Notes: generated from the letters alone by a model not told the origin. Counted from the first letter of the stretch, positions 9,203 through 60,891 are shown. The stretch is DNA of 64,000 bases from a virus (IMGVR_UViG_3300014806_000004), one strand, 5' to 3'. Program-made: numbers and translations.

Positions 9203-9763
9203 TTGGCTGAAGTTGTTTATAAAACAATATTTTAGTTCAAGCGAGGAACATCAGAGAAGTGGACCGAATTAAATCCAATTCTTCGTCAAGGTGAGCCGGG
9301 ATTTGAAATAGATACTGGAAAGTTAAAAATTGGAGATGGAGCCACCGAGTGGAAATAGTTAAAATATATAAATAGTAGTTTGGTAAATGTTGATGTAGAC
9401 AATCAATCTATTGTTATTGATGGAATTGGACAGATTTCATTAAAAGGATTTGCAGAAGCATCAACAGGGCAATCTATTAGAAAAAGAGAAGATGGCACAT
9501 TAGAGTGGTATACTCCAATATCTTAGGATAAAGTAATAGAAACTATCTCTATCGGAAACAAAGATTTGCCGGTTGAAGATAATAAAGTTACTATTCCGGC
9601 GGGAACAGAAGAAAATCTTGGTTTAATTAAGGGGAGTAGTTAGAATAACTAGATAAAAATACTTTCAGATGGAACCGGAGAAATTAATTCTGTAGGACTT
9701 GATAAAATAGTGGATGTTGAAGGTTTTACTTTAATATTAAACTGTGGGACAGCAGTAGACTAA
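9203..9763 (+). CDS. tail fibre protein paralog (5 in-frame TAG, TAA stop)
   Basis: SD AAGGAGGGAG + TTG start; contains phage tail-fibre N-terminal motif RGTSEKWTELNPILRQGEPGFEIDTGKLKIGDGATEWK-(TAG)-LKY. Confidence 0.5.
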
Positions 9764-9783
9764 AATAAGGAGGCATTTTAAAG

Positions 9784-10845
9784 ATGGCCAATGAATTAAA
9801 AACTAGAATCCAACTTAGACATGATACCGAGGAAAATTGGACTTCAGTTAAGGACTCCTTTATTCCTCTCGTTGGAGAGGCTTGTCTTACCACTGATGGC
9901 GAGAATAAAGGAAAAGTAAAATATGGTGATGGAACAAGCACTTGGGGTTAGTTAGAATATTCTGGTGGAAAAGATATTGTAGAAGTTGATTCATCTATTG
10001 TAAAATTTGATGATGATTTTACATTTACCTATACTTTTGGTAAATATGCTCCTGGAGGAGATGGATCTGTTAATATTCCCGCGACTGGAAAAACATTAGA
10101 TCAATTACTGCTAGATGCTTTTGCGGAAGAAAAAAATCCTACTATTACGCAACCTTCTGTTAGTATTTCCTCTAGTCAAATGAAAGCGTATGAAGCAGGC
10201 ACTAATGTAACTCCAACTTATACTGCAACTTTAAATAAAGGATCTTATCAATACGGCCCAGACACTGGAATTACAGCAACCGGTTGGAGCGTCCAATTTG
10301 ATGAAGAAACAAAAACAGAAGCTACTGGAACTTTCTCTGAAATTCAAGTTGAAGATGCTACTAATTTAAAGATTACAGCAACAGCTAATTATGGGAATGG
10401 AGCTATTCCTATTACAAATCTTGGTTCTGAATATGCAGAAGGACAGATTAAAGCTGGATCTAAGTCTAATAGCACAGGAGCTATTACTGGATATCGCTAG
10501 ATTTTTTATGGAGTTAATAATTCTACAGATCCTTTAACTAGCGCGATTATTCGTTCTTTAACAGCAAGCAATAAAGCGGCAGCCGCAATGACTATTAATA
10601 GCATTAAAGCAAAAAGTGATACTAAGAGAATTATTATCGCAGTTCCTCAATCTTCTGGGCTTAAAGTTACCGCAGCTAATATTACTTCTAGTTTGAACGC
10701 AGATGTAACTTCTAGCTATGTAAAACAAGGACCAGTGCAAGTAGAAGGAGCAAATGGATTTACCGCGGTTCCTTATGATGTATTCGTTTATCAACCTGCT
10801 TCCATTGATCCAACTGAGGATCATAAGGTTGTAATTGGAAAGTAA
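9784..10845 (+). CDS. tail fibre protein paralog (TAG at 9949 and 10498 in frame; joins ORF-track fragments 10180..10500 and 10588..10845)
   Basis: N-terminal TRIQLRHDTEENW...GDGTSTWG-(TAG)-LEY motif; single frame with no TAA/TGA until 10843. Confidence 0.55.
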
Positions 10846-10862
10846 GGAAGGAGGAACAAATA

Positions 10863-56966: not shown

Positions 56967-57009
56967 TATGCTATAATGTAAGTATAAAGAAAATAAGAGA
57001 GGTATAATT

Positions 57010-60000
57010 ATGGGTATGTACTTTAACAATCATGCGCATACGGAGTTTAGTAACTTGCGTTTGCTAGATTGTATAAATAAACCTGAGGCACTGATTGATA
57101 AAGCTATTGAAGTCGGATTGACGGGAATTGCTATCACAGACCACGAAAGCCTTTCGGCGCATATGAGAGTAAATAAATATGCAAAGAAAATTAGGGAGCA
57201 AAATCCCGATTTTACGATTGCATTAGGAAATGAGATTTATTTAACTGATACAAGAGATTTAGGACAAAAGTATTATCACTTTATCCTAATCGCGAAAGAT
57301 AAAGAAGGATATAGAGGACTAAAGGAGTTATCCTCTATTGCTTGGATGAATGGATATTATGACCGTAGAATGGAACGCGTTCCTTTGCTTAAATCTGAGC
57401 TTAAAGATGTAATGCAGAGATTTAAGGGTCATATTATTGGGACTACTGCTTGTATTGGTGGAGAACTTGGTAGTTCCATTTTAAATCTTCATAATTGTGA
57501 AGAAATTAAAGATGAAATTAACGCATAGAGATACCATAATCAAATTGTTGATTTTATGACATTCTGCATTGATGTATTTGGTAAAGATGATTTTTACATT
57601 GAATGTGCTCCCGCTTCTTATCCAGATCAAATTATCGCAAATAAAAGAATGTTAAGTATCTCTGAGGCTTTTAATATAAATATGTGTATTGGAACAGATG
57701 CGCATTACTTAACAAAAGAAGATAGATATGTTCATAAAGCGTATCTTAATTCTAAAGGTGGAGAACGAGAGGTTGATAGTTTCTATGAGTTTACTCATTT
57801 GATGGATGAACAAGAAACTAGAGAACTTCTTAGATTGAGCTATGACGAAGGCATAATTGATTGGATTTTTAAATGCTCAAACGAAATGAAAGATAAAATT
57901 GAATTTTATTCTCTTGAACGTCATCAATCAATTCCAGAAGTAGAAGTAACAGATTATAAAAAAGGGTTTGTACCATATCAGTGGGAAGATAAATATCCTG
58001 TTCTATCTAGTTTGATTTGGAGCGATAATATTCAAGAAAGATATTGGGTAAATGAATGTATTATTGCTTTGCAGAAAAAAGGTTTATTTAATGATCCTAG
58101 ATATCTTGAAAGATTAGAAGAAGAAGCAAGAGTAAAGAGAGTGATTGGAGAAAAACTAGGAACTTGTATGTTTGCATACCCAAATACTCTAAAACATTAT
58201 GTAGATTTGTTCTGGAATTGCGGAAGTACCGTAGGTGCAGGGCGAGGATCAGCTTGTGCTGCTTTGAACCATTATCTTCTTGGAATCACTCAACTAGATC
58301 CCATTGAATGGGATCTTCCTTTCTGGCGCTATATTAACGATGAAAGAACTGAACTTGGTGATATTGACCTAGATTTGGCACCATCAAAAATTCAAAAGAT
58401 TTTCGCGGAGATTAGAAAAGAACGAGGAGAACTTGGCTTAGTACAAGTTTGTACTTTTGGCACAGAAGGAACTAAATCTGCGATTTTAACAGCTTGTCGA
58501 GGCTATCGTTCAGAAGATTATCCTGATGGAATTGATGTAGATATGGCTCAATATATGAGTTCTCTTATTCCACAAGAAAGAGGTTTCTTATGGCCTATTG
58601 AGGATGTAGTTAATGGTAATCCGGAAAAAGGCCGTAAACCTGTTACGGTTTTTGTAAATACTGTGAATCAGTATCCTGGATTATTAGATATTATTACTAG
58701 AATACAAGGACTAGTAAATAAACGTTCAAGTCACGCTTCTGGAGTAATCTTATTTGATCAAAATATTTTTGATACAGCCGCGGTAATGAGAACTCCAAAA
58801 GGAGCATTAATTACTCAATGGGATCTTCATGATCAAGAAGCCGCTGGATCTGTCAAGTACGATTTCTTGCTTACAGCAGTACAGGATATTATTATTCAAA
58901 CTATTGAGCTATTGCAAAAAGATGGCGCTATTGAAAAAGATTTAACATTGCGTGAAGTCTATAATAAATACCTTCATCCATCTGTCCTCCCACAAGACGA
59001 TAAAAAAATGTGGGATGCTCTTGCCAATGGAGATGTTCTTGGCTGTTTCCAATTTGATTCTAGTGTTGGCGCTCAAGCAGCAAAAAAGATTAAGCCTCAA
59101 AATCCGCACGAAATGGCGGACGCTAATGGATTGATGAGACTAATGACTGCGGAAAAGGGTGCAGAAACTCCAATGGAGAAGTATGTTCGTTTTAAAAATA
59201 ATATTTCTCTTTGGTATAAAGAAATGGATCAGCAGGGTTTAACAAAAGAAGAACAAAAAATTCTTGAACCTCATTTCTTACGTTCTTATGGTGTGCCTCC
59301 CAGCCAAGAACAAATGATGACTATGCTTCAAGACCCAAATATTTGCGGATTTACGTTAGCTGAAGCTAATACTGCAAGAAAAATAGTTGGTAAGAAGCAA
59401 ATGAACAAAATTCCAGAATTAAGAGAAAAAGTTTTAAATTCTGCAAAGTCTCCAGCATTAGGACAATATGTATGGAATTATGGCATCGGTCCGCAAATGG
59501 GCTATAGTTTCTCCATTATCCATGCTCTTGCTTATAGCTTTATTGGTATGCAAACTCTCTATCTTGCTACCCATTTTAACCCAGTATATTGGAATACAGC
59601 ATATCTTATCGTCAATAGCGGTGCCATTAATGAAGAAGAAGGAGAACAATCAGATTATACCAAGATTGCTAAAGCCATTGGAGAAATTCGTAATGCTGGT
59701 ATAAAAGTGTCTTTGGTTGACATTAACTATTCTGATTTTGGTTTTAAACCAGATGTTGAACATAATCAAATCTTGTTTGGTTTAAAAGGGTTATCTAACG
59801 TAAACAATGATTTAATTAAAACTATTGTTGATAATCGCCCCTATGTATCTTTAATTGACTTCCTTAATAAAGTACATCCAAATAAACAAGCAATGATTTC
59901 CTTAATTAAGGGCGGAGGATTTGATCAATTCCATCCTAGAATGGAAGCGATGATTCAGTATATATGGATTACCTGTGACAAGAAAAAAAGGATTACTTTA

Positions 60001-60891
60001 CAAAATCTGCCTGGATTAATGAGATATAATCTCATTCCTGATGAAGAAAGATTTATAATGCCAAAAAGAGTTTATGAGTTTAATAGATATTTAAAAGCAG
60101 AATGTAAAGACTAGTATAATGCAGATAAGTATAAGCTAGATGAAAGAGCAATAACCTTCTTAGTTGAAATTGATTGTGAGAAGCTGCTTGAAACAGATAA
60201 TTTAATTTGGTATATTGATATAAAATCTTGGGATAAAGTTTATCAAAGTTACATGGATGTATTTAGAGCATGGATTGCAGAAAACAAAGAAAAGATTTTA
60301 GATGATTTAAATACTGCAATCTTTATGGAAGATTGGAAGAAATATGCTTCTGGTAATATTTCTTCTTGGGAAATGGAATCTTTGTGCTTTTATTATCATG
60401 GCCATGAATTATCCAATATCAACAATAGTAAGTATGGTTTTGTAGACTTCTTTAGTTTACCAGAAGAACCTCAAGTAGATAAGGTATTTAAAAAAGGTGC
60501 TTCATTAATTCCTATCTATAAGCTGTATAAGATTTGCGGAACTTGTATTGCAAAAAATAAAGTAAAAAGCACGGTATATCTTCTTACCGCTACTGGAATT
60601 GTAGCAGTTAAGTTTAGACAAGAATACTTCGCGTTGTTTGATAAGCAAACTTTCCAAAGAAACAAAGATGGCACAAAAAAGGTCATAGAAAAATCATGGT
60701 TTAATAGAGGTAATATGATTGTTGTTCAGGGAATTAGACGAGGAGATGAATTTGTAACAAAGAAATATGCAAGTTCTGGAGGTCATCAACTTTATCACAT
60801 TGATGAAATTGTCAATGGTACAGACTTAATTTTAAGAAGTGAAAGAAAACAAGGAGAAGAAGAGGATGAAGATAGTAGCGTTAATGGGTGA
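57010..60891 (+). CDS. DNA polymerase III alpha-like (PHP + DnaE core + OB), 2 in-frame TAG (57526, 60112), TGA stop
   Basis: N-terminal PHP HAHTEFS...DHES; three ORF-track fragments share one frame. Confidence 0.55.

Follow-up and report, generated by a model that had tools for sequence, protein, structure and literature searches.

The closest described system is the 'code switch' model of Borges et al., in which recoded (code 15) gut phages delay the production of their late proteins (bioRxiv 10.1101/2021.08.26.457843). The clades described there are crAss-like, Lak, Jade, Sapphire, Agate, Garnet, Amethyst and Topaz, and a recoded homing endonuclease, an intron HEG of the Agate clade with TGA, was already included (10.1101/2021.08.26.457843). 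A second system is phAss-1 of the proposed Phassvirus, an uncultured human-gut phage of ~136 kb (Babkin et al. 2023, PMC10607447). In T4-type phages, the codon usage of late genes is matched to the phage tRNAs (discussed in Borges et al., 10.1101/2021.08.26.457843).

The DNA analyzed here, referred to as the window, is a stretch of 64,000 nucleotides out of the ~144 kb of an uncultured phage that uses code 15 (TAG = Gln) by means of its own tRNA(CUA) and that probably has a Firmicutes-type host. No megablast match was found among GenBank phages, where the best protein identity for topoisomerase II A was 35%, and no named recoded-phage clade could be assigned to the family. The window family shares with the Borges clades the reading of TAG as Gln with a phage tRNA(CUA), in-frame stops in part of the genes, recoded structural and lysis genes, replication genes that vary, close relatives with the standard code in which TAG stops are rare (8% for the window family), repeated gain of recoding, and preferential recoding of an endolysin-type amidase. 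It differs from them in that the most consistent load falls on genes for a conserved TM-coiled-coil-GIY-YIG protein and, inside the replication region, a RecJ-like protein, and in that a Pfam scan of window ORFs turned up neither a release factor such as RF2 nor an aaRS. With respect to the model itself, our data indicate TAG avoidance elsewhere rather than TAG preference. The interpretation is the published one, and the window is a clear new example of the pattern behind it. The preprint of Borges et al. is reported to have appeared later in Nat Microbiol (2022).

The window resembles phAss-1 in having large tRNA sets, tRNA-Sup(CTA) and non-recoded relatives, with TAG read as Gln in ~28% of ORFs in phAss-1 (PMC10607447). 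No megablast similarity was detected in the GenBank phage collection, which may lack the phAss-1 record, and TAG density by gene class is not treated in the phAss-1 paper (PMC10607447). As in T4-type phages, the window has a large tRNA array, and its presumed early block is less AT-skewed in codon usage; unlike in T4-type phages, the codon concerned is a host stop, so the effect would be near all-or-none and would multiply with each TAG.

The meaning of TAG in the window is Gln. Long ORFs lie on the + strand without exception, and when TAG was read as sense the ORFs of at least 100 aa covered 52.1 kb, up from 42.4 kb, while the longest ORF grew from 852 to 1293 aa. In the alignment of the RecJ-like gene, TAG columns 70, 172, 332, 495 and 578 were opposite CAA/CAG in non-recoded orthologues, and exchanges between TAG and CAA/CAG were observed between relatives that are 96-98% identical. 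For three genes, the conditional probability of Gln in the partner given TAG was approximately that given CAA or CAG. Of 446 unique gene ends from recoded loci, 8 had TAG as the first stop past the end of the C-terminal alignment, versus 28 of 344 (8%) from non-recoded relatives. The suppressor tRNA, with anticodon CUA, was identified by ARAGORN at 14850..14925 (+ strand; Rfam tRNA, 59.8 bits) and most likely decodes TAG as Gln; its acceptor stem core (GCGGA/TCCGC) and discriminator G73 are the same as those of the phage tRNA-Gln(UUG). The tRNA-Gln(UUG) and a tRNA-Gln(CUG), the standard Gln decoders, are encoded by the phage at 6668..6819 (+ strand) alongside the suppressor system. The phage tRNA array is large and serves chiefly A/U-ending codons.

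The sequence-only reading had proposed that TAG density depends strongly on gene class, and its per-gene counts were matched exactly by a recount with TAG as sense. Within the window, which excludes the main structural module (~80 kb) and in which counts taken alone are small, 65 in-frame TAGs were spread very unevenly over 58 genes (chi2 = 211, df 57, p = 1.5e-19; p < 1e-5 by multinomial simulation, per codon and per Gln codon alike). Genes with zero TAG numbered 36 against 24 expected, and the gene annotations were confirmed with Pfam and PHROGs. The TROVE-like, MVP, RNA ligase, NAMPT, topoisomerase II B, topoisomerase II A, DNA ligase and holin-like ORFs contain no TAG; they amount to 4,167 codons (12.5 kb) and not to the 'about 4 kb' first given, and the chance of finding zero TAG over their 115 Gln codons is ~1e-6 at the window-wide share of 0.114. 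Core replication genes carry 1-2 TAGs, as had been stated (DnaB 2, PolIII alpha 2, NrdD 2, SF1 helicase 1). Single TAGs at 7410, 26700, 51288 and probably 22067 lie 5' of the likely true start codon. These counts support the conclusions that the TAG-rich set (tail fibres, endolysin and two nucleases) is not made at full length without suppression, and that the genes lacking TAG could be translated under the standard code.

The four tail-fibre genes lie on the + strand at 9197-9763 (5 TAG; Mtd_N at 50 bits, clearly above the Pfam cut-off), 9784-10845 (2 TAG; Mtd_N at 24.2 bits, below cut-off), 10863-12035 (5 TAG; no Mtd_N match) and 12061-13398 (2 TAG; Mtd_N at 19.6 bits, below cut-off), and their orthologues carry 1-5 TAG each. 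No early-type promoter motif was found in this region (8.6-13.4 kb), nor in the lysis cassette (35417..38015, + strand), which is flanked by terminator-like hairpins at 35367-35394 and 38017-38055. The cassette consists of a NAGPA+SPOR protein gene (35417-36271, 2 TAG), the endolysin gene (36274-37683, 9 TAG, with no Shine-Dalgarno sequence found) and a gene for a holin-like TM protein (37680-38015, 0 TAG) whose ATG overlaps the endolysin TGA. In IMG/VR relatives the endolysin has a mean of 5.0 TAG (25 loci). A second lysozyme-domain protein with a signal/TM segment is encoded at 54654-55457 (+ strand; Phage_lysozyme2, E = 1.4e-17); it has 0 TAG in the window and in 8 recoded loci. The idea that recoded stops gate late and lytic functions would fit the loaded endolysin and tail fibres, but lysis gating is incomplete in the window, as the holin-like and second lysozyme genes are TAG-free.

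The RecJ-like gene (52899-54650, + strand) has the largest count, with 13 TAG and no TAA or TGA in 583 codons. It encodes a DHH/DHHA1/OB exonuclease (PF01368, DHH; PF02272, DHHA1; PF17768, RecJ OB) that matches phrog_2484 over its full length (E = 2.3e-151). TAG-free neighbours lie 3 nt away on either side, and no strong terminator-like hairpin was predicted between 49.2 and 55.4 kb. In three clades the gene has 13, 5 and 7 TAG at mostly different positions, and its mean across the family census is 9.5 (8 loci).

The GIY-YIG nuclease gene (44918-45829, + strand, 8 TAG, no Shine-Dalgarno sequence) encodes a TM segment, a coiled coil and a C-terminal GIY-YIG domain (PF01541 at residues 211-291, E = 2.3e-8). 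HEG PHROGs cover residues 209-302 only; residues 1-205 match no Pfam or PHROGs family, no DNA-binding module was found in them, and by eye they resemble a TM helix and a long coiled-coil-like stretch. A homing endonuclease of the I-TevI / Seg type would be expected to have an N-terminal catalytic domain and a C-terminal DNA-binding domain, and here the catalytic domain is C-terminal. A mobile HEG would be sporadic, and this gene keeps its neighbours across 39 recoded loci and 24 that are non-recoded. The label 'HEG' is therefore not supported for what is a conserved syntenic gene, and of the suggestion that TAG also gates nucleases and a homing endonuclease, the TAG load of two nucleases is retained and the homing identity is not. 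GIY-YIG orthologues average 9.8 TAG in the 39 recoded loci, over 85 distinct TAG columns, and have 0 TAG in the 24 non-recoded ones. A terminator-like hairpin (44880..44908, + strand; 12 pairs, 7 of them G-C, then a T run) ends 10 nt before the start of the gene. An equivalent hairpin is found 5' of GIY-YIG in 14 of 14 divergent relatives with upstream sequence, recoded or not, and its stem sequence differs from that of the window.

The genes poor in TAG include a nearly TAG-free block of 21.9 kb (13468..35363, + strand) with TROVE/DUF2828, MVP, RNA ligase, NAD salvage, Thg1 and PhoH-PIN genes, many junctions of a terminator with an early-type promoter, and a codon usage of its own. They also include topoisomerase II B (38607-40496), topoisomerase II A (40509-42875) and DNA ligase (43163-44269), all on the + strand with 0 TAG; taken together, their orthologues in recoded relatives (98 unique sequences) have 3 TAG versus 714 CAG. 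The DnaB-like helicase (49766..51319, + strand, 2 TAG) and DNA polymerase III alpha (57010..60891, + strand, 2 TAG among 53 Gln codons) form a low-density class. Since each of these two requires two read-throughs, suppression has to be functional when replication takes place, and the rule that early genes are TAG-free is not absolute.

To interpret these differences, the Leu codon ratio TTG/(TTG+CTG) was used as a proxy for the neutral expectation. TAG/(TAG+CAG) was 0.78-0.93 in the GIY-YIG, RecJ-like and holin-like genes, 0.71 in the tail fibres and 0.53 in the endolysin, and within each of these it was close to TTG/(TTG+CTG). In the remaining gene sets it was 0.00-0.09 versus a Leu ratio of 0.60-0.71 (family-wide 0.09 versus 0.71 for the 13468..35363 block). 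TAG in the rich genes is thus at, and not above, the level of an unconstrained synonymous codon, so that the signal is avoidance elsewhere and not enrichment. The data suggest that genes needed early lose TAG by selection, and not that late genes gain it. Our preferred reading, to which we assign a probability of about 70%, is that expression of the TAG-rich genes is delayed until suppression is efficient, and that this arises by avoidance of TAG elsewhere.

Under this reading, purifying selection would be strong against TAG in genes translated by the standard-code machinery of the host or before suppression is efficient, and would have kept it out of topoisomerase II, ligase, the RNA-repair/NAD block and the greater part of the replisome. 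TAG would be an ordinary synonymous codon in a small set insulated from early expression, namely the tail fibres, the lysis cassette, the terminator-preceded membrane-anchored GIY-YIG nuclease and the RecJ-like exonuclease. If the full-length yield is e^n for n TAGs at read-through efficiency e, a gene with n = 13 would yield 1e-4 if e were 0.5 and 0.25 if e were 0.9. A load of 5-13 TAGs would then keep a gene effectively off until the suppressor beats RF1, and 1-2 TAGs would only dampen it. From the sequence we infer the promoter and terminator units, a tRNA made early and the delay as such.

The only 12/12 sigma70-type consensus match in the window (TTGACA-17-TATAAT with an upstream TG; 14384..14412, + strand) lies 5' of g14425 and ~440 nt upstream of the tRNA(CUA), inside the TAG-free block. 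A match before the tRNA is kept at -466/-472 nt in four relatives (L100-L102 and L125; 76-100% MVP identity), and three recoded clades hold a syntenic tRNA(CUA) that heads the TAG-free block behind early-type promoter motifs. We infer that the 14384..14412 match acts as a promoter. The location of the tRNA behind a perfect consensus in a TAG-free block points to its synthesis early, and probably not late, when judged by the condition that the sequence-only reading had itself named as refuting, a suppressor tRNA expressed constitutively from time zero. The proposal that late genes are gated until the suppressor accumulates is consequently kept as regards gene-dependent TAG use and altered as regards the tRNA, which is itself probably placed for early synthesis; any delay would come from its accumulation and from competition with RF1. 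Units without an early-type promoter motif carry 37 TAG in 137 Gln codons versus 28 in 440 elsewhere (odds ratio 5.4, p 8e-10), where the units were assigned from consensus matches after the TAG data had been seen; overall, sigma70-like match counts were not above those of shuffles. The RecJ-like gene, with 13 TAG, belongs to a unit with an early-type promoter, contrary to this pattern.

A census of 128 loci, whose sequences are phylogenetically non-independent, found the same genes TAG-rich in IMG/VR relatives and ~0 TAG in topoisomerase II A/B, ligase, primase, MVP and TROVE. On the topoisomerase II B tree, recoding state switches at least 7 times. The gene specificity is therefore convergent, and GIY-YIG again has 6-10 TAG in recoded lineages that stand isolated. 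At 40-60% identity few TAG columns are shared (Jaccard 0.03-0.05), yet the counts are maintained. TAG density in the window was correlated with that in the 65% clade (rho 0.58, p 4e-4), and there was no correlation of TAG density with divergence (rho -0.18, p 0.32).

These persistent counts also bear on a possible though clearly less probable reading, in which positive selection favours many TAGs as a timer or safety catch, their number is itself the trait under selection, and the targets are enzymes harmful early or in the wrong cell (DNA-cutting nucleases and endolysin). Independently recoded lineages load the same genes at different positions with counts kept at ~9-13, the RecJ-like gene is loaded despite an operon shared with TAG-free neighbours, the TAG share of the endolysin has a 5' gradient (0.38 down to 0.06), and Borges et al. 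argued for such selection on lysis genes and the intron endonuclease (10.1101/2021.08.26.457843). However, the TAG share never exceeds the Leu proxy, a three-state chain predicts a share of 0.66-0.68 where 0.44 is observed, the base after TAG is unbiased relative to CAG, GIY-YIG has no 5' gradient, and TAG columns act as ordinary Gln columns. It is conceivable, at about one chance in four, that amber load is a selected gene-specific translational threshold that acts inside operons atop transcriptional insulation and is reinvented with each gain of a suppressor tRNA; with similar reserve, it might hold back the membrane-anchored GIY-YIG enzyme, the RecJ-like exonuclease and the endolysin. If so, the TAG count would act as a digital delay that can be tuned, the yield scaling with e^n.

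It is rather unlikely that TAG use reflects expression level and not timing, with TAG, as a slow and leaky codon, acceptable only where little of a protein is required, at whatever time it is produced. The absence of Shine-Dalgarno sequences from GIY-YIG and endolysin, and the terminator before GIY-YIG, suggest low expression, and synonymous usage is somewhat more AT-skewed in TAG-rich genes; but little or no TAG occurs in low-copy enzymes (primase, ligase, topoisomerase II, and PolIII alpha with a share of 0.04), and the tail fibres are structural yet TAG-rich. A mosaic history, in which the TAG-rich genes, the presumed 'HEG' above all, came from more heavily recoded phages and the TAG-poor block from standard-code donors, is very improbable. 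The 13.4-35.4 kb block does differ in composition (GC3 up to 0.44; CAA/CAG 1.1 versus 5.6-9.2 elsewhere), but the GIY-YIG gene, the RecJ-like gene and the MVP block are syntenic in dozens of relatives whose non-recoded orthologues have 0 TAG, TAG positions are lineage-specific, and the order of terminator then GIY-YIG is conserved. That the TAG-rich ORFs are decaying pseudogenes, or accidental fusions across real TAG stops, can be practically dismissed: nothing was found in favour, the RecJ-like frame stays open, Pfam and PHROG domains span the TAGs, TAG stands opposite Gln in orthologues, and the cognate tRNA(CUA) is present.

With over a hundred loci, at least 7 recoding changes and standard-code sister lineages, the family amounts to a large natural data set, replicated within itself, for the model proposed by Borges et al. 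In practical terms, annotation under code 11 would fragment exactly the TAG-rich genes. Strong AGGAGG ribosome-binding sites occur and the non-recoded relatives use TAG stops; both are indirect indications of a host that may use the standard code.

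In-frame TAG codons are distributed very unevenly over the genes of the window. Across 58 genes, in which 65 TAG, 133 CAG and 372 CAA codons were counted, TAG was over-dispersed (chi2 = 211, 57 df, p = 1.5e-19), and simulations in which TAGs were dealt per codon or per Gln codon gave p < 1e-5. The claim of the sequence-only reading that TAG use is strongly gene-dependent is thus confirmed; its per-gene counts were exact on recount, and its gene annotations were borne out by Pfam and PHROGs. Its figure of about 4 kb of TAG-free coding was too low, as the eight genes that it named comprise 4,167 codons (12.5 kb). 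Some single TAGs probably precede the start codon that is really used.

Every substantial ORF is on the + strand. When TAG was read as sense, ORFs of 100 aa or more covered 52.1 kb in place of 42.4 kb, and the longest ORF grew from 852 to 1293 aa. Pfam and PHROGs identified the endolysin (36274-37683, +; Phage_lysozyme2 and Amidase_2), the GIY-YIG protein (44918-45829, +) and the RecJ-like exonuclease (52899-54650, +; DHH/DHHA1/RecJ_OB). In the four adjacent tail-fibre genes (9197-13398, +), Mtd_N was clear of the Pfam cut-off in the first alone (50 bits), scored below it in two others (24.2 and 19.6 bits) and was absent from the gene at 10863-12035. Also annotated were DUF2828/TROVE-like, MVP, RNA ligase, NAMPT, NadE, Thg1, PhoH-PIN and RNase H, together with topoII B and A, ATP-dependent DNA ligase, ThyX, DnaB, primase, PolIII alpha, guanylate kinase and NrdD. 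A tmRNA and 22 tRNA genes lie in the first 16 kb; the tRNA at 14850-14925 has the anticodon CUA.

In the alignment of RecJ-like orthologues, window TAGs at conserved columns match CAA or CAG in relatives without any in-frame TAG, and TAG is exchanged for CAA or CAG between relatives that are 96-98% identical. In three genes, Gln in the diverged partner was equally likely at TAG columns and at CAA/CAG columns. The tRNA(CUA) and the phage tRNA-Gln(UUG) have an acceptor-stem core and the G73 discriminator in common. Pairwise comparison of the tRNA(CUA) with the remaining phage tRNAs did not help (best match Cys, 58/76); the assignment rests instead on the homologue alignments and on two features of the tRNA, its acceptor stem and its discriminator base. 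The phage uses genetic code 15.

The same genes are loaded with TAG across the family. The means were 9.8 TAG (11 per kb) for GIY-YIG orthologues in 39 recoded loci, 9.5 for RecJ-like orthologues in 8 (13, 5 and 7 in three clades), 5.0 for endolysin orthologues in 25, and 1.8-4.5 for each of the tail-fibre orthologues in 4-5, while topoII B and A, ligase, primase, MVP, TROVE and the second lysozyme had means of about 0 in up to 42 recoded loci. TAG positions are not conserved: the GIY-YIG gene has 85 distinct TAG columns, whose Jaccard index is 0.03-0.05 at 40-60% identity, with counts still at about 9-13. Isolated recoded lineages that branch among non-recoded relatives repeat the pattern, with 6-10 TAGs in GIY-YIG and 0 in topoII. 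TAG density in the window genes correlated with that in orthologues of the 65% clade (rho 0.58, p 4e-4). The distribution is thus a property of the genes and not an accident of one genome. Collection of TAGs in fast-evolving genes was ruled out by comparison with protein divergence (rho -0.18, p 0.32).

Unconstrained use of T versus C at the first codon position was gauged by the synonymous Leu pair TTG/CTG. Family-wide, TAG/(TAG+CAG) and TTG/(TTG+CTG) were 0.84 and 0.91 in GIY-YIG, 0.78 and 0.84 in RecJ-like, 0.71 and 0.67 in the tail fibres, 0.53 and 0.64 in the endolysin, and 0.93 and 0.79 in the holin-like gene; they were 0.00 and 0.64 in topoII plus ligase (3 TAG, 714 CAG), 0.07 and 0.60 in the replisome, and 0.09 and 0.71 in the block at 13.4-35.4 kb. 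For the five richest genes of the window alone, the shares were 0.89 and 0.90. Since the TAG share approximates the TTG share in the rich genes and falls far below it elsewhere, TAG is one synonymous codon among others in the rich genes and is avoided in the remaining genome. The base following TAG (A.35, C.21, G.26, T.18) is distributed as it is after CAG, so there is no sign of a context tuned for read-through or termination. A bias of TAG towards the 5' end, significant in the raw data, vanished in GIY-YIG once the positions of Gln codons were controlled; it was kept in the endolysin and, in RecJ-like, in the first fifth only. This bias carries no weight in the interpretation.

The 13468-35363 block (+) is an RNA-repair and NAD-salvage set, encoding TROVE/DUF2828, a major-vault-protein-like protein, RNA ligase, a Thg1-like enzyme, a kinase and phosphoesterases, and further NAMPT, NadE, a PRPP-synthase-like protein, isochorismatase and PhoH-PIN. 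Its GC3 is higher, and its CAA/CAG ratio is about 1.1 versus 5.6-9.2 elsewhere.

No GenBank phage matched 41 kb of the window in megablast, and topoII-A in tblastn against the same phages gave matches of at most 35% identity, so no annotated or cultured relative was available. IMG/VR holds a large related family, with contigs mostly of 100-195 kb and a few up to about 240 kb. Among the first 128 loci, 56 had at least two in-frame TAGs in orthologues and 72 had none or one, and the recoding state changed at least 7 times on an NJ tree of topoII-B. Suppressor tRNA sequences differ among three recoded clades, which suggests that these tRNA(CUA) genes had independent origins. Gene ends in non-recoded relatives use TAA 269, TGA 47 and TAG 28 times, and of 446 gene ends in recoded loci only 8 have TAG as their first stop. 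The tRNA(CUA) genes of other clades, unlike the window's in sequence, lie at 6344-6434 in L104 and at 3901-3975 and 4174-4248 in L106 and L107; one such gene has a length of 91 nt, and two copies are found in one clade.

In close relatives, a walk from NrdG in the downstream direction met small + strand genes and a cluster on the minus strand, and no capsid or terminase genes. The cluster contains a serine recombinase/invertase-like gene with 5-7 TAG (L129 17760-18461, L130 17025-17696, L131 17031-17702; -), which adjoins tail-fibre-like ORFs and possibly forms with them an invertible host-range segment. A Gln-rich 141-aa protein in the same cluster has 8-9 TAG.

Transcription units were inferred from sequence features. 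Terminator-like hairpins exceeded those in shuffled sequence at 33-53 kb (20 vs 7.3 ± 2.6), 8-28 kb (19 vs 11.4 ± 3.9) and 48-64 kb (13 vs 6.0 ± 2.3). A generic sigma70 scan of the window showed no excess over shuffles, and the only enriched elements were the terminators and one recurrent extended -10 type motif, TATGATATAATATATAT(A/G)GAAAG, which occurs in many intergenic regions, usually directly 3' of a terminator-like hairpin (5993, 13686, 14404, 20654, 21934, 25337, 27583, 29973, 31627, 33330, 38086, 44323, 49213 and 56969, +). It occurs at high density in the 13.4-35.4 kb block and is also found upstream of the RNase H/topoII, ligase, g44368, wHTH, g49258/DnaB and PolIII units, and it is probably the early promoter class of the phage, read by host RNA polymerase. 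The motif is absent 5' of the tail-fibre cluster, from the lysis cassette, which is flanked by hairpins at 35367-35394 and 38017-38055, and from the GIY-YIG unit. Units without the motif, as classed post hoc, have 37 TAGs in 137 Gln codons, versus 28 in 440 elsewhere (odds ratio 5.4, p 8e-10).

A strong terminator-like hairpin (44880-44908, +) ends 10 nt before the GIY-YIG ATG. The hairpin was present in 14 of 14 divergent relatives with upstream sequence, recoded or non-recoded, and its equivalent ends within about 15 nt of the ATG in each of them, as in L001, L007, L025, L032, L040, L045, L052, L066, L070, L085, L088, L097 and L099. Because the stem sequences differ, it is the structure that is conserved, and because the hairpin also occurs in non-recoded relatives, the gene would already have been insulated before recoding arose. 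The GIY-YIG domain is C-terminal (residues 211-291), and residues 1-205, which by inspection resemble a TM helix and a long coiled-coil-like stretch, matched no Pfam or PHROGs family and yielded no DNA-binding module; the gene is syntenic in 63 loci. The 'HEG' label is not supported, as the gene departs from a homing endonuclease in two of three defining features (the domain is C-terminal without a DNA-binding module, and the gene is syntenic and non-sporadic), and the product is better described as a conserved, predicted membrane-anchored GIY-YIG nuclease. Nearby, a 67-aa ORF (44368-44571, +) has a TAG at codon 5 and a mean of 1.1 TAG in 31 relatives; it is preceded by a near-consensus promoter (44304-44332), with g44600, the terminator and the GIY-YIG unit just downstream.

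The RecJ-like gene is the exception. Only 3 nt separate it from TAG-free genes on both sides, no strong terminator-like hairpin was predicted at 49.2-55.4 kb, and TAG would be its only visible means of differential expression. In the lysis cassette, the endolysin and holin-like genes have no Shine-Dalgarno sequence and the endolysin TGA is overlapped by the holin-like ATG, so that coupled translation with the endolysin may indirectly gate the holin-like gene, which has no TAG itself. The tight adjacency of the two genes is kept in relatives. Coupling through ATGA is putative, since start positions vary and the holin-like gene has its own early TAG in other clades, including the 76% clade. A second gene with a lysozyme domain (54654-55457, +; Phage_lysozyme2), which also encodes a lipoprotein-like signal/TM segment, lies at the end of the replication operon and has 0 TAG in the window and in 8 of 8 recoded loci; its role is possibly superinfection-related or in wall remodelling.

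The tRNA(CUA) lies among small TAG-free ORFs where the TAG-free block begins, and about 440 nt upstream is the window's only 12/12 sigma70-type consensus (TTGACA-17-TATAAT with TG). This layout is kept in relatives with 76-100% MVP identity, and early-type -10 elements also occur 5' of the suppressors in two other recoded clades. The position fits the published scheme of early-made code-change molecules and argues against late transcription, so that any delay would come from tRNA(CUA) accumulation, charging and competition with RF1. If full-length yield drops as e^n, 13 TAGs would give 1e-4 at e = 0.5 and 0.25 at e = 0.9, and the two TAGs of PolIII alpha and DnaB would give 0.25 and 0.81, resulting in a graded threshold series across genes. 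Since PolIII alpha and DnaB carry two TAGs, suppression would have to work already at replication.

Partial recoding with suppressor tRNAs has been described in other clades, with recoded structural and lysis genes, variable use in replication genes, and few TAG stops in standard-code sister lineages; an amidase, a spanin and a tail gene of crAss-like phages and an intron homing endonuclease of Agate phages are preferentially recoded (Borges et al., bioRxiv 10.1101/2021.08.26.457843). Another TAG-recoded gut phage group has genomes of about 136 kb (Babkin et al., PMC10607447). A 2026 jumbo-phage survey found recoding in hallmark genes with no preferred protein type, and no experimental test of the timing model was found in the literature searched. 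The gene-class pattern agrees with the model of Borges et al. and is a known phenomenon, rediscovered here in a family unmatched to any named clade. The proposal that TAG gates late and lytic genes through the suppressor tRNA is partly supported: it is consistent with that model, and several details were wrong, among them the 4 kb and the HEG label. New here are the convergent TAG loading of two nucleases, the evidence that TAG is avoided and not preferred, and the match between TAG load and predicted transcriptional insulation.

Inside the tRNA array lies a phage tmRNA (4123-4438, +; Rfam 114 bits) with the tag peptide DNDYFENYFAA. A tRNA-like gene (6989-7105, +; Rfam tRNA 49.8 bits), not called in the ARAGORN scan, carries an insert in its anticodon arm of about 45-55 nt; tRNAs with introns have been reported in recoded jumbo phages (PMC13037316).
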